Source of the DNA: Podarcis cretensis
Taxonomy: Eukaryota
Direction of reading: 5' to 3'
Assembly: GCA_951804945.1 (NCBI GenBank)
Contig: OX638151.1
Coordinates: forward strand, 89,590,001 to 89,654,000
DNA: 64,000 nt
Every line of letters begins with the position of its first letter. The stretch's first letter is position 1. Made by a program: the position numbers and the translations under genes. Under the pieces are notes generated by a model that saw only the letters and a list, made by a program, of their open reading frames with translations, made no database searches and was not told the origin of the DNA. This document shows, piece after piece, positions 11,500 to 64,000 of the stretch.

Positions 11500-14400
11500 T
11501 GCAACTTGCTGCTGCTGTTACTGCCGGAGGGGCACAGAGTGTTTTTAAAATGTTTTTTAAAAAATTCTTTTGTATTTTTTGTATGTGGGGGGTGGGGGTG
11601 AGATGGATGTTTGGTTGGGCTTGGGGAATTTTTTATTATTATTATTTTGATGTTTTTGTAATTTTTACATTTTTTTGTTTGTATTGTTTTATTGGTTTTG
11701 TCTGTTTGTTTAAGGTGTTGTTTTGTTCTTAGGGGGAGGGGTCAGGGCTGCCGGGGAGTGGGCCCCAGCCCACAAAATGGCTGGGGCATGTTCCACAGGG
11801 GGGGATGCACTGGGACAACCGATCTCAGTGATCACGGGTAGGAGGAGGAGTTACGCTAAGACTAGACCATGTCATTACAGAGGGGGCAGGTTTAGTCACT
11901 GTCTGAGGACTATCCCTGCCTCTGGGTCTGGTCCTGACCAGATGGATACTAGAATCAGCAAGGGATACCCACATGACCTGAAGGTGCTGCTGTGCAATGC
12001 CAGGTCAATGATTCTTAAGACCACTGCCATCCATGACTTGATCATGGATGGAGGACTTGACCTGGCATGTGTAACAGAGACTTGGTTGGATGAAGCAGAT
12101 GGGCCTGTCCTTGCCGCTGCTTGTTCACCAGGTTTCTCTTACGCACAGCAACCCAGGTCATGTGGGCGGGGAGGGGGGGGTTTGCAGTGATTTTTAGGAA
12201 GTCATTAGTTTGCACCAGGTGTCCTATTGGGAAGACTCAGTTTTCCGAGTGCATGTTCTGGAAGTTGGGCAATAGGGGCAGTACAGGATTCCTTTTGGTG
12301 TACCGACCTCCCCGCTGCACCAAGGATTCCCTGCCTGAGCTGCTTCAGGTCATGGCGGATGTTCTCCTGGAGACACCTAGCTTGGTTGTCCTAGGGGATT
12401 TTAACATCCATGCCGACACGACCTTACAAGGGGCCAGTCGGGACTTCGTGGAAAGCATGGCCTCCATAGGGCTGTCCCTAAATAAGTCTGGCCCAACCCA
12501 TAGCCGCAGACATGCCTTGGACCTGGTGTTTACCTCTATGGATGTTGGTGATCTGACACTAAGTAAAAGTGAAATGAAAGAAGTGCCATGGTCAGATCAC
12601 TTCCTGGTGCAACTGGACTTCTCCGCGACCCATCCCCTCTGCAGGGGTCCGCCCCCGCCACTTAATGGATCCAAATGGTTTACAGAGAGTGGTAGGGGAT
12701 GCTTTATCCCATGTTGATGGCCTTTCAGCTGATTCCCTGGTGGCCTGCTGGAATGTGGAGTTAACCAGGGCTATTGACTGTTTGACTCCGAAGCGCCCTC
12801 TCCGATTGCATGGAGCCCGGACAGCCCCGTGGTTTTCCATGGATCTGAGGGCAATGAAACAATCGTTGAGACGGCTAGAGCACTGGTGGCGGATAACTCA
12901 TTCTGAATCTGACCGGACACATGTTAGAGCTCAACGTCGAGCCTACCAAGTGGCGATAGCGACGGCGAAGAAGAATTTCTTCACCGCCTCTATTGCATCT
13001 GCAGAAAACAACAGCAGGAGACTTTTTCAGGTGGTTCACAATTTAGCGGAACCACCTGCAACATCGGGGCCCAGTACCGGCCACATGTTCTCCTGCAATG
13101 ATTTTGCAAAGCTTTTTGCTGATAAAATCGCTCAGATTTGGGAAGAAGTAGACTCCACCGTGGGAGCAGGGAGAGTGCTAGAGTTTTGTCTAGTGATGTT
13201 GAGTGGGATCAATTCCAATCTGTTACCTCTGAGGATGTGGACAGGCTGCTTGGACGAGTGAAACCAACCACCTGTCTCCTGGATCCTTGCCCATCCTGGG
13301 TTATAAAAGCTAGCCGGGAAGGACTGGGCGATGGGCTTCGTGGGGTGGTGAATGCTTCCCTCCGTGAGGGAGCCTTCCCAGACCCGCTGAAAGAGGCGGT
13401 TATTAAACCGCTTCTTAAAAAACTATCTTTAGATGCGGCCACAATGGCCAACTATCGCCCAGTCTCAAATCTTCCATTCTTGGGCAAGGTGATTGAGCGA
13501 GCGGTTGCTGAACAACTCCAGGCACGCCTGGAAGAAGCGGACCATTTGGATCCCTTCCAGTCGGGATTCAGGCCTCATCATGGGACTGAAACTGCCTTGG
13601 TCGCACTGGTTGATGATCTCCGGCAGGCTAGGGACAAAGGTGAGAGCTGTTTCCTAGTTCTGCTGGATCCCTCAGCGGCGTTTGATACCATCAACCATAA
13701 CATCCTTCTGGACCGTCTTGAGGGGCTGGGAGCTGGGGGCACTGTCATACAGTGGTTCCGCTCCTTCCTCCTGGGCCGTGTTCAGAAAGTGGTGGTGGGG
13801 GATGAGTGTTCAGACCCCTGGGCTCTCACTTGTGGGGTGCCTCAGGGTTCTGTCCTCTCCCCCTTGCTTTTCATCATTTACATGCAGCTGCTGGGAGAGA
13901 TCATCAGGAGGTTTGGGCTGGGTGTTCATCAGTATGCGGATGATACCCAGCTCTACCTCTCTTTTAAATCAGAACCAGTGAAGGCGGTGAAGGTCCTGTG
14001 TGAGTGTCTGGAGGTGGTTGGAGGATGGATGGCGGCTAACAGATTGAGTGGTGCATGCTCTGGTTATCTCCCGCTTGGACTACTGCAATGCACTCTACGT
14101 GTGGCTACCTTTGAAGGTGACTCGGAAACTACAACTAATCCAGAATGCGGCAGCTAGACTGGTGACTGGGGGTGGCCGCCGAGGCCATATAACACCAGTC
14201 TTGAAAGACCTACATTGGCTCCCAGTACGTTTCCGAGCACAATTCAAAGTGCTGGTGCTGACCTTTAAAGCCCTAAACGGCCTCGGCCTAGTATACCTGA
14301 AGAAGCGTCTCCACCCCCATCGTTCTGCCCGGACGCTGAGGTCCAGCACCGAGGGCCTTCTGGCGGTTCCCTCATTGTGAGAAGCAAAGCTACAGGGAAC

Positions 14401-25489: not shown

Positions 25490-28170
25490 CTTCTAAATCT
25501 GGGCAATACAAAGTAATTTACAATCAGATAAACAGACAATAAAACCCACATAGATACATTAAAACCAAGATTAAAGAGAAATACATTAAAAGCATCCTGC
25601 CTACTTCAAAAGGTCACAAATAGTTAAAATGCAAAGACTTGGTTATACAGGAAAGATTTTGCTTGGCACCTAAAATATATATAATGATGGTGACAGGTAA
25701 GCATAACTGGGGTGGGCATTCCACAAATGTGGAGCCACTACAGAAAAGGGCTGTTCTTGCATTGCCACCCTCCTGATATCTCATGGAGGGGGCACACGAA
25801 GAAGGACCTCAGATGATGATCACAGGGTCTGAGTTGATTCATATGGGGATAGGCAGTCCTTGAGGTATTGTGGTCTTTTTAAAAAAATAATTTTTTATTA
25901 ATTTACAACAAAAACACACAATAATTTCACATCCAAATTTTCACAAAGTATTTCTTTTCTGGACTTCCTTCAGCTTTTCCGTAAATCATTCATAGTCATT
26001 ATTTAAGTTACGCATTCCTTAGGTTTGTATTGTCATTATTTGAGCCTTTCTTTTTCTATTCCCTTTTAACAATACTTCTCACATTTCACAGTGTTTCTTT
26101 AAATCCCTCTAGCGTTATCTGTCCCTCACTTATACTTTTCAGATATTCCACAAATTTTCCCCAGTCCTCGATGAACTTTTGGTCTCTTAGATATCTCATC
26201 TTCCCAGTCAATTTATCCAACTCAGCATAGTCTAACAGCTTCATTCTCCATTCTTCCATCGTCGGTATTTCCTGTTGTTTCCATTTCTGAGCCAGTAACA
26301 CTCTTGCAGCTGTCACTGCATATTAAAAAAAATTACTGTCCTTTCTCTTTATCTCATTTCCTAAAATTCCTAGCAGAAAGGCCTCTGGTTTCTTTATAAA
26401 TGTATATTTTAGTATCTTCTTCAATTCATTATATATCATTTCCCAGAAGCCTTTCACTTTCTTACATTCCCACCACATATGGTAAAAAGAGCCTTCTTTA
26501 TCTTTACATTTCCAACACTTATTACATGTCTTATACATTTTCGCTAATTTTACCGGTGTTATGTACCATCTATAAAACATTTTCATAACATTTTCTTTTA
26601 ATGCCATACATGCTGTAAATTTTAAATTCTCCTTCCATAATCTTTCTCAGTCTTCAAATTGTATGTTATAACCAAAATCTCTGGCCCAATGTATCATTAC
26701 CGATTTAACTTCCTCATCCTTCAAATTCCATTCTACCAACAGCTTATACATTTTGGATAAAATTTTAAAATCATTATTTATTATTTCTATCTGAAATTTT
26801 GAATCCTTGTCTGCATAACCACATTCCTTAATGTCTTTCCTAAACATTTCATTTATTTGAAAATAATGCAACCAGTCATATACATGTTCTTTAACCTGTT
26901 CATATGGTTTCATTTTCCATTTTCCTCCTTCTTTAAATAACAATTGGCCATATGTGATCCAATTACCTCTCATATTGATTTTCCTTACACTCATAACTTC
27001 TAATGGAGATAACCAGTGTGGTACTCTAGGTTCTAATAGGTTTTTATACCTGTCCCAAACTTCAATTAAAGGACCTCAGAAGATGTGGTTCTCAAAACCT
27101 TTATGGATTTTCTTCTTCTCACACCATAAGTACGCATGCCATCCAAATCTGTTATCAAACCCCTCTAAGTCTAACAATTCCTTATTTTCTAATTTTATCC
27201 ATTCTTTCAACCAGCAAAGGCACGATGCCTCATAGTATAATTTCAAGTCAGGCAGGGCAAAGCCTCCTCTTTCTCTCACATCTGTTAGTAACTTAAATTG
27301 AATTCTCGGCTTTTTGCCCTGCCAAATATATCTTGAAATCGCTCTTTGCCACTCTTTGAAAATCCTGTTTCCCTTAATTATGGGGATAGCCTGAAATAAG
27401 AATAACATCCTTGGAAGCACATTCATCTTAATTGTAGATATTCTGCCCCAAAAGGACAGTTTCATTCTTCCCTACACCTCCAAGTCCTTTCTTATTCCAT
27501 TCCATAACGGTTCATAGTTGTTCTTAAATAAGTCTATATGTTTAGAAGTTAACCATATTCCTAAATATTTCACCTTTTTAACCACCTCTATCTCTGTTTG
27601 CTGTTGCATTATTTCTATTACACTTTGGTCCATGTTCTTTGCGATCATTTTCGTTTTCTTCTTGTTTAGTCTAAAACCTGCCACTCCTCCAAACTGTTCA
27701 ATTTCCTCCAAGAGGTATTGTGGTCTTAAGCCATTTAAGCTTTATAGGTCAAAACCAGCCCTTTGAATTAGGCCCAGAATCTAATTGGGCCAGGACTGGT
27801 GTTATATGCTCAAATCATTTTGCCCCATTGAGCAACCCTGCTGCTGAATTCTGCAGTAACTGAAGTTCCTGAAACTTATTTAGAGGCAGCCCTACATATG
27901 ATGTGATACAGTGATCAAAACTAGAGGTTATCAGAGCATAGAAAACAGAAGTTAGGCTATCCTTGTCCAGATAGGGGCACAGCTGGCCCACCAGCCCAAG
28001 CTGATGGAAGGCACTCTGCAACCCCTGATACCAACAGATCTTCAAGCAAAAGCAAAGGATCCAAAAGTATCCCAAGCTGTGTACCTGTTCTTTCAGAGGG
28101 CATGTAAGGAAAGTATACAGGGAGGCGAAAGATGATAAGGTGAGAAGTTTCACTTGTGTTCTTGCCAATG
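25490..28170 (-). mobile_element. Old L2 3' fragment, split by an L1
   Basis: LGILLDP, AFHQLGLVGQLCPYLD and YVGLPL...LQLLQNSAAGLL at 27728-28170. It continues at 25877-25500 with a degenerate FSVVAPHLWNA and 3'UTR. Confidence 0.75.
25878..27711 (-). mobile_element. L1-clade LINE, 5'-truncated (1.83 kb)
   Basis: Late RT region (VKYLGIWL), LSFWGRISTIKMNVLPR, GGFALPDLKLYYEA, and a CCHC knuckle CWKCKDKEGSFYHMWWEC. AATAAA plus A-tail. Perfect 16-bp TSD gaggtattgtggtctt at 25862-25877 and 27712-27727, at a TT/AAGA site. Confidence 0.95.
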
Positions 28171-48412: not shown

Positions 48413-50388
48413 TATTCTATACCTAGTGGAGAGAGAGAGAGAAAGAGAGATTCCTCCCACTTTTCGTCCAGTGTGATACGGCAGGTTCCATCACATCAGA
48501 ATTTTGTTTTCCAACTTAAACCTATATCATGTGTAAATTGGACTTGAAAACCAGGCTTTAGCACAAAAGGAAACATGAGCCCTTTTCACTTAAATCCGAC
48601 ACATGGAGGGGGCCTGCACCTGCAGTCTCTGGCATCATCTGCCCCATGAGGACCAACGCCCATCCCCTGTCCATGACCATGCTTTCCTTTTCATGCCAAA
48701 TCATGCCAAATGCATGGTTATCTGGGTGGGGGGCAAGGTCCCCATGATGCCTGACATCAGGACCAGGAAAGCAATCCTACTCCCTCTTTAAAAAGTGCAC
48801 TAAATGCCTGTGAACACCCTGATTGACCAGATTTGCACATCAGTGGGAAACCTCCGCATCACTTGTGGCCATGTTAGCATTTTGACTCCATGGTGTTAAT
48901 TCTTTCCAGAATTCAGGTGTTTTACTATGGACTCGGGAAATGAGCAAAGCATTCTAGTCCAGTTACTAAAAGTAGTCACTTGCTTTCCATGCCACCCACC
49001 TAAACTCAGCTTCCCAGTATTTACAAGTTCCTGCAGACTTTGTTCCTGCAGACTTTGTTGCCACTTGTGGAAACAGACTATCTAGAGGGCCTTCTACATG
49101 CAAGACTTAAATCTCTACTGGCTTGGTGCAGAAAGGCAATGACAGCCTGACCTCTCTTTCCACATATAAAAAGAAAAGCGGTAACAAATACAGAAAACAA
49201 CAACAGTGTTAGACTTTTAGAGAAATATCCTGTCAAGTTTTACTTCGAGGCATAATAAGTCACTGGGTCAGAAAAGCATTAGAAAAGGTCTAAGTTCCTG
49301 GTATATTTCAAGGAAGGAACATGTTATGTCATCATAGTGCTATCATGCTGCAAAAGAATCCCTTCTGGTTTTGTTTTTTAATATAAAAAGTGAACTAAAC
49401 TAACATTAATCTGTACTAGGTTGCAAAGAGTACTGTTAGGCATTCACTAGTAGAAATAATTAAAATGACTGATACAAGCTCTACAGAGAAGTGTTTAATA
49501 TTAAACGTTAAGTGAGATTGATAGACAGAATTTGGATGGCCTTGGGAATGAAAAGGTCCTTGATGGAACACCTGACATCCATCTCCAGGCAGCTTCTTTC
49601 TTGTCTCCTTTCAGAATACCTGGCACAGATATGTCTATGGGCCTAATGAATATTGCAAGTAACCCAGAACATATGGCTTTTTAACTGTGGAGGTCCCAAA
49701 TTGCTTATGGCCAGAGAGCCAGATCTTCATAGTTTCCAACTGCCTCAAAAGTCTGGGACCATCATGAAAACCCTTATGCCATCATAACTTCTCACTTTGT
49801 CATGCAGAGTCCTGAATTCCCAAATGCAAACCTTTCGTCCCACTTAGCACCATCTAAAAAAACCCTACAGTCTTTCTCCACCTTTTGATTCATTACTTCC
49901 TCCATCTCCAGGCCAGAGAAAGAGGGAAGCAGCAACCTACTTGTGCTTCTTATCTGCACACCCTTACGAGCTGCTCAGCAGCATCACACACAACAGGTCA
50001 AATGGGGAAACCATGTCTGAACTATAGGCCAGAGATTCTCCACCCCTGGTTTACGGCTTCATAGGTCAAAACAGCATCTTAAATTGTTCCCAAAAAGGTG
50101 TAGACAAACAGTGGCTCAGTTCACATAATACTAAGCGTCATCCAAATTCAGCTTTTGGTTTCTCTTCTTCAAACCATGAACTGTAAGCTAAGAACAAGCC
50201 TTGTTTACAGGCTGTGGCTTTTCTGTCATGATACAAAACATGAAGCTATATTTAGGATGAAGAGTGCATATAACTGTACGTATTAGTGAAAATCACGTAC
50301 AAAAACCATTATATTGGGGAAATTGCTTGCAAAATTTGTGCATTTGTCAAAACTGCATTCAAAAGTGTGTCTATTATAAGAAATTCAT

Positions 50389-51531
50389 TTTTTAAAAAAC
50401 ATAATTTTTATTAACATTTCAATGTTTATTTCAATTCACATTAGTTCCACATTATACTGCCAAATTTTTCAATTTTGTTGAGGGGTACCCATACATCAAG
50501 CTCCGAGCGAGGATCCAAACATCACTTCTATTACTGCTTTAATTAAACAGTTCTATCCAGTTCTATCCAGATAGTCTCTTTATTACTTTCTTCATCTTCT
50601 TATTGTTGTCATATATTCCTTTCTTTGCGATCTCTGATAATCTTCACAAGCAGGTTAGAGCAAACATCGTCTGTGTGGGTTTTACACACTCCACAAGTCA
50701 TATCTCGGGACAGCTGCCGTTCCCCTCCTCCTTCAAAGATTTATCATCGGTCTGCCCTTTAGTTTCCCCAGGCTTGTAAAATATCTCATAGAGGGCTCTG
50801 CCAGGTTAAATTCAAGTTCAGTCATCATTCACATTCCAATGAGTCCTGGTTCTCCTCCCCCCCCCCCGTCTTTCTTAAACAAGCCTGTCTTGCGAGACAC
50901 CATTTTAAACTGCGTCATAGAATTTTCCATTCTCCGATATTTACCAATCCTCTCTTCATTCATCATTAATTCATCCCACACAGTTTTTGAATTCCTGCTT
51001 ATGATAAATAAAATATGGCGGTTCTTCTTTCTTCTTTCTTTGGGGTGGAGGGTTATTATTAATGCTCACATAGGATAAAGAAACAAAAAGTTTTTCCTCC
51101 ACCCCTTCTCCAAACATACCACTCTCTTAATGGCACTCCATCACTTGATTTATTTGTCCTCTCCCACCGCTCTGATCCCAGAGATCCATTAATCAGCAGC
51201 CTTATCTCTCGAACTTTGCCTGATGTATGTGCTTCAGCTCCTTTCCAATTATATATTTCCAATTATATTTTTGAGCTGAAGCGAACCAGCCCACGCTGAT
51301 TGGAAGCAGCGTCAGGAAGAGCCGACCTCACCTAGGGCTCGTGCCAAGTGACCGGCACCCCCGTCTTTCGAATCCGGGGGTGCATTATGGACACTGTTGG
51401 CAAGGCAGCCCCCCCTCTCCTTGGGGGGGGGGGAGGCTGCATACTTCCCATAGCAGCCTCTTAATTACCTCGTGTGGGTCGGAGAGATGTTATTGTCGGC
51501 CATCTTCCAATGCACCATCTGGTGGGCCCCC
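50389..51531 (-). mobile_element. Non-coding 1.14-kb retroposon with an L1-like 5' end (non-autonomous, probably L1-mobilised)
   Basis: Perfect 18-bp TSD ctattataagaaattcat at 50371-50388 and 51532-51549. Minus strand starts GGGGGCCC...AAGATGGCCGAC. The first ~250 nt are CpG- and hairpin-rich. It ends AATAAAAATT...AAAAA. No ORF longer than 80 aa. Confidence 0.8.
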
Positions 51532-54500
51532 CTATTATAAGAAATTCATAGTAAAATGCTGAATAATTTTCATACAGGCTTCCTCCCCAAAAAAATAAAT
51601 AAATAAATCAGAAACTTCTGTAGAAATGTGGAGAACTGAATTTAGGATTGGAAAAATTAGAATTTGAGAGAACCGAAACTTGACAGTTTCATCCTCTGTA
51701 GGTACTATTGAGATTTCAGGTATTCAGTTACTCAGTTTATAAATCTTGAAGACTTACAAATAACTTGATTTGAGGAAGTGACATTCAGAATAGGAGCATC
51801 ACTCTCAGCCTTTCAGAATGGTGTTGGCAGACTCAAAAGATTAACTTGGAGTTTTAGGTACTACTTGTGCATTTTGCAATTGTGCCTTCTCAGAGATAGA
51901 AGAATGTCACTGGTTTCTGTTATGTATTCCACATTCAATCTCAATAAAATATGATCTGGGTGTTTCATTATTTCCTTGTACAATAGCAGGACTCTGCTAT
52001 GTTTTTTTTCTCCATCAAGTTTGATATAAGCTCTCTCTCCTGACTCTGAATGTGGTTGTTCTTTCACGAATTGTGCTGGTTATAGAAATGTCTATAGCTT
52101 AGTCATCTATAGTAGTAATTTATCCAGGTCAGGCCAATTTGGAATGAGATTTTTCAATTGGACTGAGTGTTCCAGGATCTATCAGTGATGCTAACCTGTA
52201 GCTTAAAAAAGCAATATATGGACTATTTTGTCTTGAGTTTTCTCTATTCTTTTTCTTTCTTTTTGATGCCTATAGTAGCCCCTACTCTGCATTCCCAATT
52301 GTTAGAGGGTGGTGAGGGCTACTGGTATTATGGCAAAAGTTGTAATGTATCTAAAACAGACAGAAGTTTGCTGCTGTAAATTGGACACATGTCAAGGAAA
52401 CATTGTATGAGGCTGAAAGAAACATCAATGCTTGTTTAGAAGAAGATGCTGGGGGAAAATGTGTCACTGTGACTGTGTGAGGACAATTACAAATAGAAAG
52501 GATGCTGGTTGCATTTTCATCTGGATAAATTACATGAAAGGTGAAAATGTCCTTTCGCCCACCCATGTCACATCATCTGGGTATGTCACATGATAGCAAA
52601 AAAACCAAAACCATCCTTTTTAAAAAAATACTTTCTGCACTATGCTTTTCTATTGGGGAGGGGACTGCACAGCCTTATTTAATCCCGTTTCAATCTCCTT
52701 TGTGCTCAGTTGTAAGTCCACTCTGTCCTGTTTTGTGTGTATTTTTTGAAAGTGCACACAAATGTATGGGAGTTATATTCTGATCCACAAGCAAGTGTGG
52801 GAGCCTTGGATGTGGGAGGTCTGCAAAAAGCAAACTGAATTAATTCCTCCTCCATCCCCATCCTCTTGATGGAGAATCCTAATGCTTAATGCATTTGAGG
52901 GGAACCTTTGCATCCTCAGATGTGGTTGAACAACAGTTCCCATTAGCCCCAGCAGGAATGGCCTGAATGATGGCAGCCGTAGTTCAAAATGCCCAAAGTA
53001 CTTCACACCTGCTTGTATGTTATGAAGCTTTCCCCATTTTGTTGTGTATGCTTTCTGAAACAGTAGGCCTTTTTTTGCTCCAAAATGCTTTTAAAATTGT
53101 TGTGTTTGCTTTTTTCTGGACTCTCTTCTGTTGTGCTTTTTGCGTTACCTTTTCAAAGTCACCCCCAAATTATTTTTGCTTCTTGTTCTGTGTTTGAACA
53201 ACTTGCTTGCCTTGCTATGATGATGGATTGCACCCCCAACCACCCCTGACCACTGGCCATGCTAGTCAGGGTGGTGGGAGCTGGAGTTCAAGAATGCCTG
53301 GACGGCACCACATTGGCCTAGGAGATTAGTGTTTAGGAGCAATCTCTTAGGTGTTCCTCTTTTTTTATTAGTAAATACACAGGATATGGTCTATTCATAC
53401 AAGGCCCTAAAAACAACTCAACAATTTTTGATGAAAGCAAAACCACATTACTTTGGACAATTAAGCATGCATCAAATCTGCCAGGGAGCTGTTGTTGTTC
53501 CTGTTGCTGCTCTGTTTTGTTGCTGATTGGACTCTCCCCTCTGCAATGCTGATTGAATTTGAGTTGGGGGGGGGGAGTTATTATTTATTGACAGTAGTCT
53601 TCGGGCAGTGGCACTCTCTTGACTGCCTTGAGAGTTGAGCTTCTGAGAGGGAAGAGTGTGGCTGGGAGATTCGCTCCATTGGGGCATTTGCCTGTGCCAG
53701 TCTGGTGGTCCTGCAAATGCATTTGCACTGTACTGACCTCCCTTCCTCCTCTCTCTCACACACCCTGCATCTTATTCTTGGTAAACAGCAGTGATTCAGC
53801 TCCCAAGAAGTCAAGTGAGGACACCACCCCACCATAATATCCTCTACTGTTTATTGATTCTAATATGTTTCAACAAACAGTGTTATTTTAAATGTGTGTG
53901 TTATCTACCAGGAGAGGACATTGGGGCTCAATGGAAGAGAAATATAATAGCACAAACAGAAAATTGCTATTGTAACCACACACCCTGGTGTAATGAAAAC
54001 TGATGATGTCATCTGGCCACACTGAAGGGTACTGTGGAGATGAAGACCTTCAAAAAGCCAGCCACGTGGCGATAAAGTCCTGGGGGAGGAATGAGCAGAG
54101 AAAGCACTCAGCTATAGATGCAAGATACATATGCCATGCTGACTAAATCGCCCAATGTGCCTTTTCAAATTAAGATATTGTGTCACAGACCAAAGAGCTG
54201 TTCTTTCCCTCTAAGGAGCATTATAAATGGTATCCCAGTGGAGTTCAGTCAGTTCAGACATTTTCTTTCATTTTCTTTCTGCTTACTACATTGAGAAGTC
54301 CAATTGACTGTAATGCATGTCATGGTAGAAGACACTACCATAAAAAAAAAAAAAAAGAATTTTCAAGAGTTAAGAAAAGCTGACCTCATGGGAAAATAGA
54401 ATACTTACCTACATTTTTTTAAAAAAAACAGAGAGAGATAGAGATGGAGAGAGTTAGAGAAGTTAAAAGATTCCTTTTCCATTTCCCCATCAAAAATAAT

Positions 54501-61803: not shown

Positions 61804-64000
61804 TTGTTGCTTAGTCGTTTAGTCGTGTCCGACTCTTCGTGACCCCATGGACCAGAGACGCCAGGCACTCCTGTCTTCCACTGCATCCCACAGTTTGGTC
61901 AGATTCATGTTTGTAGCTTCGAGAACACTGTCCAAACATCTCGTCCTCTATCGTCCCCTTCTTCTTGTGCCCTCAATCTTTCCCAACATCAGGGTCTTTT
62001 CCAGGGAGTCTTCTTTTCTCATGAGGTGGCCAAAGTATTGGAGCCTCAGCTTCACGATCTGTCCTTCCAGTGAGCACTCAGGGTTGATTTCCTTAAGAAT
62101 GGATACGTTTGATCTTCTTGCAGTCCATGGGACTCTCAAGAGTCTCCTCCAGCACCATAATTCAAAAGCATCAATTCTTCAGCGATCAGCCTTCTTGATG
62201 GTCCAGCTCTCACTTCCATACATCACTACTGGGAAAACCATGGCTTTAACTATACGGACCTTTGTTGGCAAGGTGATGTCTCTGCTTTTTAAGATGCTGT
62301 CTAGGTTTGCCATCACCTTTTGCCCAAGGAGCAGGCGTCTTTTAATTTCGTGACTGCTGTCACCATCTGCAGTGATCATGGAGCCCAAGAAAGTAAAATC
62401 TCTCACTGCCTCCATTTCTTCCCCTTCTATTTGCCAGGAGGTTATGGGCCCAGTGGCCATGATCTTCGTTTTTTTGATGTTGAGTCTCAGACCATATTTT
62501 GCGCTCTCCGCTTTCACCCTCATTAAAAGGTTCTTTAATTCCTCCTCACTTTCTGCCATCAAGGTTGTGTCATCTGCATATCTGAGGTTGTTGATATTTC
62601 TCCCTGCAATCTTAATTCTGGCTTGGGATTCATCCAGCCCAGCCTTTCTCATAATGAATTCTGCATATAAGTTAAATAAGCAGGGAGACAATATACAGCC
62701 TTGCCGTACTCCTTTCCCATTTTTGAACCAATCAGTTGTTCCATATCCAGTTCTAACTGTAGCTTCTTGTCCCACATAGAGATTCTCAGGAGACAGATGA
62801 GGTGATCAGGCACTCCCATTTCTTTAAGAACTTGCCATAGTTTGCTGTGGTCGACACAGTCAAAGGCTTTTGCATAGTCAATGAAGCAGAAGTAGATGTC
62901 TTTCTGGAACTCTCTAGCTTTCTCCATAATCTAGCCCATGTTTGCAATTTGGTCTCTGGTTCCTCTGCCCCTTCGAAATCCAGCTTGCACTTCTGGGAGT
63001 TCTCGGTCCACATACTGCTTAAGCCTGCCTTGTAGAATTTTAAGCATAACCTTGCTAGCATGTGAAATGAGTGCAATTGTGCTTTAGTTGGAGCATTCTT
63101 TGGGATTGGGATGTAGACTGATCTTCTCCAATCCTCTGGCCACTGCTTAGTTTTCCAAATTTGCTGGCATATTGAGTGTAGCAGCTTAACAGCATCATCT
63201 TTTAAAATTTTAAATAGTTCAGCTGGAATATCATCACTTCCACTGGCCTTGTTATTAGCAGTGCTTTCTAAGGCCCATTTGACTTCACTCTCCAGGATAT
63301 CTGGCTCAAGGTCAGCAACCACACTACCTGGGGTATACGAGGCATCCATTTCTTTCTGGTATAGTTCCTCTGTGTATTCTTGCCACCTCTTCTTGATGTC
63401 TTCTGCTTCTGTTAGGTCCTTTCCACTTTTGTCTTTTATTATGGTAATCTTTGTATGAAATGTTCCTTTCATATCTCCAATTTTCTTGAACAGATCTCTG
63501 GTTTTTCCCATTCTATTGTTTTCCTCTATTTCTTTGCATTGCTCATTTAAGAAGGCCTTCTTGTCTCTCCTTGCTATTTTTTGGAAATCTGCATTCAATT
63601 TCCTGTATCTTTCACTATCTCCCTCGCATTTTGCTTGCCTTCTCTCCCCCGCTATTTGTAAGGCCTTGTTGGACAGCCACTTTGCTTTCTTGCATTTCCT
63701 TTTCATTGGGATGGTTTTAGTTGCTGCCTCCTGTATAATGTTGCGAGCCTCCATCCATAGTTCTTCAGGCACTCTGTCCAGCAAATCTAAATCCTTAAAC
63801 CTGTTCCTCACTTCCACTTAGATTGTATCTTACCGGCCCAGTGGTTTTTCCTACTTTCTTCAGTTTAAGCTTGAATTTTGCTATAAGAAGCTGATGATCT
63901 GAGCCACAGTCAGCTCCAGGTTTTGTTTTTGCTGACTGTATAGAGCTTCTCCATCTTTGGCTGCAGAGAATATAATCAATCTGATTTCGATGCTGCCCAT
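61804..64000 (-). mobile_element. BovB (RTE-clade) LINE, RT and 3' end; continues past the window
   Basis: HRNQIDYI, FIDYAKAFDCVDH, GVRQGCILSP, LRYADDTTL, SLEKTLMLGKIEG, and the 3' end GGGTCACGAAGAGTCGGACACGACT. Disabled by two frameshifts (~63095 and ~62785) and a TGA at 62179. Confidence 0.97.

Follow-up and report, generated by a model that had tools for sequence, protein, structure and literature searches.

The 64,000-nt stretch of Podarcis cretensis DNA analysed here (the window) contains a complete-looking retroposon without coding capacity. The questions that it raises are whether it is a one-off product or a member of a family, and which machinery mobilised it. A preliminary description had proposed a Pol II-driven, non-tRNA element mobilised in trans by L1, with an L1-type promoter end.

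Structure of the element and its insertion site

The element occupies positions 50389-51531 on the minus strand, as do all features of the element given below, and is a full-length lineage A copy (1,143 nt) of a non-coding retroposon family, with 6.8% non-CpG divergence from the lineage A consensus. It lies between the two copies of a perfect 18-bp direct repeat, as previously noted: the 5′ target-site duplication (TSD) at 51532-51549 and the 3′ TSD at 50371-50388. The insertion split an older repeat into a left half (50281-50384) and a right half (51550-51692), neither with an assigned strand, and the two flanks are contiguous in locus L139. In organisms D and E, contigs cross from the flank into the element tail, and no empty allele was seen in four DNA runs.

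Most sequence features in the preliminary description were recovered. The first 250 nt are CpG-rich (61% GC, 12 CpG, observed/expected ratio 0.52 versus 0.23 for the window), and all four claimed head hairpins (51355-51383, 51406-51440, 51434-51459, and 51292-51312) were found. The 5′ end carries a G5 run, and the motif AAGATGGCCG said to follow it lies at element nt 26-35, so that 20 nt separate the two. The AATAAA and A-tail had been likened to those of the L1 at 25878, and the final 27 nt match the L1 end at 25876-25901 with 92.6% identity. No ORF1 or ORF2 remnant was detected, consistent with the claimed lack of RT, endonuclease, and ORF1. The non-tRNA assignment also holds, with no tRNA gene in the window and no Rfam match at E ≤ 1.

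A family of roughly a thousand full-length copies

The element belongs to an ORF-less family with roughly a thousand full-length copies in this lizard genome. Exact head 16-mers occur 530 times genome-wide (1 for the control) and exact tail 17-mers 635 times (5 for the control), and an overlap estimate gives ~1,000 copies. Twenty-eight other loci align over at least 1,087 of the 1,143 nt at 84-90% identity, most with their own TSD, and the window element is therefore neither a chance product nor single-copy. We note that loci L009 and L010 have common flanks and are duplicates of one insertion.

Copies sharing both ends and differing in their TSDs, which the preliminary description had proposed to count, are frequent: 58 of 68 non-redundant copies have their own TSD of at least 10 nt (median 16 bp). 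Of 30 tail-anchored copies, 25 extend over the full length. The 30 head loci taken without selection all belonged to the family, and none ran on into an ORF. Target sites follow Y|RRRR: of 58, 48 have T or C at -1, and 50-52 have purines at +1 to +3. The five subfamily consensus sequences (lineages A-D) are 72-86% identical, and some copies are 1-2% diverged. Dispersed copies with common ends, their own TSDs and an A-tail, lacking RT and endonuclease, define a non-autonomous non-LTR retroposon, and its target site, TSD length, and tail are of L1 type. These observations support the proposed multi-copy, full-length, ORF-less, non-tRNA family with L1-type insertion hallmarks. No description of it was found in the freely accessible literature that was covered.

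Coding capacity and transcription

The consensus sequences, built and tested for ORF1 as had been suggested, contain none; the longest ATG-initiated ORF in the five A-D sequences is at most 95 aa. Pfam and L1-profile searches of the family gave no match, nor did ORF1 protein and DNA profiles, and 21 of 160 indels between lineages keep the frame. The Pol III A/B box pattern was absent from eight heads, and no Rfam family matched at the gathering score. The family has neither a head derived from tRNA, 7SL, 5S, or snRNA nor detectable A/B boxes. The proposed mode of transcription is by Pol II.

RNA reads from four runs of organism A, possibly another species, were of low depth, with no pile-up of starts at the 5′ end of the element. 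Coverage over the first ~110 nt was ~50x, and mate orientation was skewed 40:9 and 39:13 in two of three bulk runs. This coverage and skew carry no weight, because the head is the most cross-mapping part in DNA and the reads have no assigned strandedness.

Conserved motifs

The 5′ end consists of the G-run and a candidate CTCF-core-like motif (51512-51531), which reads CCACCAGATGGTGC in the window copy, CCACCAGGTGGCGC in the lineage A consensus, and canonical CCACTAGGGGGCGC in lineage C; two lineages begin with a canonical CTCF core. The YY1-like motif (51497-51506) is conserved in lineages A-D. Further downstream, at 51077-51120, a splice-donor-type hexamer GTATGT is followed by a G-run and a pyrimidine tract. 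Among A-D copies, 41 of 49 have the hexamer near +410, and 14 of 17 L1 5′UTRs have it at +436 to +452. No spliced copy was found, and no deletion starts at the donor in any copy; the deletion in locus L319 starts 9 nt downstream of the donor. The donor hexamer near +410 and the CTCF-core starts are new here.

At the 3′ end, a conserved block (50473-50492; consensus GGGTACCCCCAACAAAA) has 635 exact genomic matches. The L1-type tail (50389-50430) comprises AATAAA (50407-50412), a short T-run, and the A-tail. The window copy has a variant tail, and the consensus tail resembles the 3′UTR of the L1s at loci L165 and L169.

A predicted four-stem structure in the 5′ head

Folding of the 250-nt head gives z = -2.56, with 3 of 200 shuffles equally good. 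A four-stem structure is predicted at nt 70-200, in which 17 of 27 pairs are changed on both sides, as counted on the alignment used to derive the structure; 93% of cells are paired versus 41-56% in slid controls. Stem-loop P1 (51433-51460) keeps the loop TGGG(A)GTA from A to F, with 4 of 8 pairs changed on both sides. Stem-loop P2 (51409-51432) pairs a C-run with a G-run and has paired T-A changes in lineage B. A long stem P3 (51342-51403), with 8 of 12 pairs changed on both sides, surrounds hairpin P4 (51355-51383). The stem order is the same in local L1 heads. Structure models of L1 heads against the family gave a best E of 0.57 one way, an ambiguous cross-match, and the reverse search gave one sense match (E = 7e-5) but antisense next family matches, and is likewise ambiguous. 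This covarying head structure is, as a prediction, new here.

Links to L1

The preliminary description had taken AAGATGGCCG as a mammal-like, L1-type start. This does not hold locally, as the inspected full-length L1 5′ ends begin with (G)ACTTCCGG, and none of them matches the family head. Lizard clade-1 L1 likewise begins with (G)ACTTCCGG; the available parts of the published account give its start motif as GACTTCCGGTG-N8-ATGGCG and its 5′UTR as 1.3 kb (Boissinot and Sookdeo 2016, PMC5381506), and the supplement sequences were compared by eye over ~400 nt. Profile searches between L1 5′UTRs and the family gave nothing significant, and no autonomous element with the family head or body was found among 100 L1-related loci. 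A Pfam PF02994 search for a parent gave no match in the genome and none in the controls either, and is therefore uninformative.

The L1 link appears instead to run through a sister family, the tail, and the common architecture. Family E, which is more distant, is collinear with the family (nhmmer E = 1.6e-12, model 64-1153, with a large composition-bias term of 39.8; block-shuffle z 4.0-10.7). Its start, GACTTCCGG-CG-N8-ATGGCG, is one mismatch from the clade-1 consensus as given in the accessible text of PMC5381506. Without its poly(A) signal, the family tail scores 35-36 against the L1s L165 and L169, which 0-1 of 200 shuffles reach (no multiple-testing correction); the match covers ~50 nt, is AT-rich, and is clear for 2 of 14 L1s and marginal for 2 more. 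L169 has an intact ORF1 and an EN-RT ORF2. Full-length L1s have TSDs similar to those of the family and the same AATAAA-ATTAT-A tail.

Three candidate connections were rejected. The L1 family of 25878, whose full-length form is found in L099/L100, differs in its 5′UTR; L092, which suggested a fusion of the head with ORF2, is an L1 that integrated into a lineage B copy; and L336, where RT seemed to precede the tail, is a truncated copy nested in an RTE element.

Origin of the family

We consider it probable that the family is an ORF-less, Pol II-type non-autonomous retroposon that has persisted for a long time and is mobilised by L1, and that probably arose long ago as a bipartite L1 derivative. 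Both its use of L1 enzymes and its descent from L1's own promoter are likely. The ancestor would be a clade-1 L1 in which both ORFs disappeared and which retained a 5′UTR-sized front and the extreme 3′ tail; lineages A-D would afterwards have swapped an ETS-type first ~60 nt for the G-run/CTCF-like/YY1 start. Pol II would start at the 5′ G-run, a position set, as in L1, by the YY1-like motif, and yield a polyadenylated 1.1-1.2-kb RNA with a folded head, whose full-length transcription the donor near +410 may help. The A-tail would then be captured by L1 ORF2p for target-primed reverse transcription. A bolder version, which we regard as doubtful, is an ancient and still active superfamily of ORF-less L1 parasites arising from the L1 promoter, whose folded 5′ RNA would be selected to capture the L1 machinery and whose youngest lineages would separately have gained a true CTCF site right at their start, seeding hundreds of new insulator or loop-anchor sites genome-wide.

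An origin outside L1 is rather unlikely: a host Pol II promoter or lncRNA would have been retrocopied, would have gained its L1 tail through a template switch, and would then have propagated itself, in the manner of Sadhu or SVA. The head and body show no sequence homology to any sampled L1 5′UTR, and ETS, YY1, and CTCF motifs followed by a splice donor are general features of CpG-island promoters, both of which suit such an origin. Against it, family E carries the clade-1 motif at its very first bases with the published spacing, the donor position and stem order parallel those of local L1 5′UTRs, and the element length is like that of the clade-1 5′UTR (1.3 kb in the available text of PMC5381506).

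A decayed HAL1-type element, with a short 5′UTR and an ORF1 whose coding capacity has since been lost, would account for the ORF1-sized body of ~900 nt, whose sense strand is A-rich (35% A, 26% T), and the genome does have an L1 with a ~450-nt 5′UTR (L245). We consider it very improbable, as ORF1 protein and DNA profiles find no match, indels between lineages ignore the frame, and the young lineages have spread with no ORF at all. A long Pol III SINE whose small-RNA head has gone unrecognised is hardly credible. The structured, covarying head and the high full-length fraction are SINE-like, but there is no tRNA, Rfam, or A/B-box match, the length is 1.1-1.2 kb, and T-runs, which stop Pol III, lie inside the element near +440.

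If the family is indeed of L1 type, it would represent a third mode of L1 parasitism, beside Pol III SINEs and ORF1-retaining HAL1. The first 100 nt, the four stems, the donor site, and the 3′ block are conserved across lineages that are 63-86% identical. Because the element holds cis-acting sequence only, this set would be a natural map of the requirements of a non-mammalian L1-type RNA, and every conserved part could be mutated in a reporter. The candidate CTCF-type start would provide a reptile test case for the spread of insulator sites by retroposons.

Comparison with known systems

The rodent B2 SINE is a retroposon with a CTCF site that has spread CTCF sites, and SVA, considered here together with LAVA, is long, non-coding, and L1-mobilised, as proposed for the lizard family. 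Unlike these, the lizard family has no VNTR, Alu, ERV, or tRNA part, and its CTCF motif is a candidate only. Arabidopsis Sadhu is similarly non-coding, with poly(A), TSDs, divergent subfamilies, and LINE-type target sites, and without a small-RNA head or Pol III boxes; it is a plant element with 39 related sequences versus ~1,000 in the lizard, and the accessible text describes no LINE-derived end (PMC2848041). The clade-1 L1 5′UTR, as far as the available parts of PMC5381506 show, shares the family E start motif, a similar length, and a GC-rich front, whereas lineages A-D start differently and no ORFs follow. The family has no alignable sequence with local L1 5′UTRs. It resembles HAL1 in being non-autonomous and probably L1-dependent with L1-type ends, but HAL1 encodes ORF1p (PMC5786205, in the text available), and the family, which lacks ORF1 and encodes nothing, is not HAL1-like.

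An ORF-less bipartite design has so far been described mainly in retrotransposon groups other than L1. One CR1 case is also reportedly known. RIME, NARTc, Bov-A, and derivatives of Vingi and R2 are of this kind, and the accessible text of the survey names only RTE, Ingi, Vingi, and R2 as sources, with L1 absent (Kojima 2018, PMC5786205). Like these elements, as described there, the lizard family has no ORF and a LINE-type 3′ tail, and it would also share with them a LINE-type 5′ end, transcription by Pol II, and mobilisation in trans; unlike them, it has no parent found, is 1.1-1.2 kb long, and is of L1 type. If this last assignment is right, a multi-lineage family of ~1,000 copies would fill the L1 gap in that part of the survey.

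The window element and its family

The non-coding retroposon copy on the minus strand of the window (51531 to 50389, 1,143 nt) is bounded by direct repeats of 18 bp without a mismatch, as claimed in the preliminary description. Its last 27 nt share 92.6% identity with the end of the truncated L1 at 25876, which bears out the claimed L1-like tail. The head, described as CpG-rich with short hairpins, has a GC content of 61% and a CpG O/E of 0.52, and all four hairpins were found. The YY1-like motif AAGATGGCCG occupies nt 26-35. The insertion split an older repeat, whose two halves are contiguous at locus L139. The window also holds a 5'-truncated clade-1 (lizard) L1 of ~1.83 kb at 25862-27727 (minus strand; TSD of 16 bp at 25862 and 27712), with full-length relatives at loci L099 and L100, and two RT-like ORF fragments. 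Judging from their translations, we take the one at 62786-63817 (minus) to be RTE/BovB-like and the one at 11714-14157 (plus) to be L2/CR1-like.

The retroposon family is real. A search of the 1.5-Gb genome with the element, suspected to be multi-copy, gave at least 28 further near-full-length loci with 84-90% identity to it (40 of 2,159 candidates scored). The ends are fixed: the exact head pattern has 530 genomic matches versus 1 for the reversed control, and the exact tail pattern 635 versus 5. Contig 1 carries 55 heads and 65 tails, and 34 of the heads pair with a tail; scaling from this pairing gives a family of about 1,000 copies, probably an underestimate since a young copy tends to match head and tail patterns alike. 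All 30 head-anchored loci belong to the family. Among 30 tail-anchored loci, taken by genome order, 25 extend to the 5' end; of the others, 2 are 5'-truncated, 2 are split by large insertions and 1 begins at nt 46. The full-length fraction is high, probably because the element is short.

Copies sharing both ends mostly have their own TSDs: in 58 of 68 non-redundant copies the duplication is exact and 10 nt or longer (median 16). These integration marks are of L1 type: the base just 5' of the insertion is T or C in 48 of the 58 and the first positions are purines, and the full-length L1s of the genome have similar TSDs and tails. At L092:5453-8001 and L101, an L1, itself interrupted, has inserted into a lineage B copy within its head, and this B copy in turn lies in an RTE element. 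A degenerate telomere-like TAACCC array is found at L336:2310-2850, ~216 kb from the start of contig C1 (G000:C1).

The family is old and diverse. A tree of 49 copies resolves lineages A/A2, B, C and D; the subfamilies branch in a ladder-like manner, the shortest terminal branches are 1-2%, and the lineage consensus sequences share 72-86% identity. It has no coding capacity, in line with the claimed absence of RT and ORF1: no ATG-started ORF is longer than 95 aa, just 21 of the 160 indels that separate lineages preserve the frame, protein profiles for 18 ORF1s and 9 ORF2s of this genome's L1s match nothing in the family, and a young copy translated in its three sense frames contains no Pfam domain. 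Conservation peaks at the two ends, over 100 nt at each; in the 5' block, 74 of the 100 positions do not vary among A-D.

A covarying head structure

An alignment of 31 heads from lineages A-D and the more distant ORF-less families E and F folds as stems P1, P2 and a long P3 with P4 inside. Of the 36 predicted pairs, the 27 in the four local helices were scored and 9 that are long-range or at the 5' end set aside; in these 27, 93% of cells are able to pair versus 41-56% with partners slid. Two-sided changes occur at 17 of the 27, across several separate lineages. These counts overstate independence, since the prediction came from this very alignment, whose rows are related. One-sided changes mostly lead to G-U pairs, which fits a sense-strand RNA. 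Autonomous L1 heads have an equal order, two hairpins followed by a long stem enclosing a hairpin. Full-length clade-1 L1s (L132-L181) have a conserved multi-stem structure in their first ~260 nt, with compensatory changes at 9 of 32 pairs, and an invariant CAGGTA motif in their 5'UTRs.

Relationship to L1

None of 100 L1-related loci is an autonomous element sharing the family's head. L1 5' ends inspected in the genome start with (G)ACTTCCGG, the same type as the clade-1 start in the consulted part of PMC5381506, and this agreement suggests that the genome is that of a lizard, probably a lacertid. A search with this published motif found families E (~1.2 kb, dispersed, own TSDs, 193 candidates; L298-L321, L328-L335) and F (~1.5 kb; L261/L272-L296; duplicated copies clustered at G000:C2:127.7-128.1 Mb), both carrying the canonical lizard L1 start. 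The E consensus (5 copies) starts with GACTTC(C/T)GG-CG-N8-ATGGCG. Lineages A-D and family E are collinear: nhmmer gives E=1.6e-12 (model 64-1153; the bias term is large), the reciprocal comparison gives E=5e-8 for the B head, and block-shuffle z is 4.0-10.7. In addition, an abundant repeat whose starts resemble GACTTCCGGCGAGGCAAAATGGCG has no ORF1 within the next 1.5 kb (L242-L271), and the autonomous L1 at L245 has a short 5'UTR of ~450 nt.

The family consensus tail without the poly(A) signal matches the 3'UTRs of L165 and L169, scoring above 199-200 of 200 shuffles; 10 of 14 L1s have no such match. L169 is an intact L1 in the same genome (ORF1 of 347 aa, EN-RT ORF2 of 1,264 aa). A donor-type hexamer with a pyrimidine tract behind it occurs in 41 of 49 copies (+384-425), in E (+405) and in 14 of 17 L1 5'UTRs (+436-452); no spliced copies were found. 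Two results speak against descent from L1: sequence profiles gave no link between L1 5'UTRs and the family, and structure-model cross-searches with L1 heads were ambiguous in both directions. On inspection by eye alone, the 5' ends of Anolis L1_AC12 and AC14, in the part of the PMC5381506 supplement consulted, resemble the family in stem order and in having a linker like GCCCATAA.

A putative CTCF-type start

Lineage C starts with CCACTAGGGGGCGC, given as the first 14 nt of the canonical CTCF site in an excerpt of PMC5694663, while lineage A opens with CCACCAGGTGGCGC, which forms the core of one predicted CTCF site in a passage of PMC3314240; the window copy has CCACCAGATGGTGC. A degenerate CTCF pattern fits 13 of 30 unselected heads, and lineages B and D are one G short. 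With E as outgroup, B is basal. Since the full core sits on separate branches, this putative CTCF core arose on two or more occasions, or has come and gone several times, changes made easy by G-run slippage.

Proposed mechanism and comparison with known elements

By analogy with established L1 biology, an internal Pol II promoter, its start positioned by YY1, would produce an RNA polyadenylated at the terminal AATAAA, whose A-tail would capture L1 ORF2p for target-primed reverse transcription. RNA reads for the family are sparse and ambiguous. The links to L1 suggest as ancestor a clade-1 L1 that lost both ORFs; long independent evolution may have followed, in which A-D changed the start motif.

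No description of the family was found in a literature search, and an automated Repbase/Dfam-type library entry may well exist. Having no ORF1, the family does not belong with HAL1. It is not a Pol III SINE either: it matched no tRNA, no Rfam family and none of the Pol III box patterns, which upholds the proposed non-tRNA nature. The part of Kojima 2018 (PMC5786205) consulted reports ORF-absent bipartite LINE derivatives solely from RTE, Ingi, Vingi and R2. The 3' end of the family agrees with this bipartite class, and its 5' end has start-motif, donor and stem-order parallels to L1 with no sequence-profile link to L1 5'UTRs. As far as the consulted portions of PMC5786205 and PMC2848041 describe them, the family works like these bipartite derivatives and like Sadhu.
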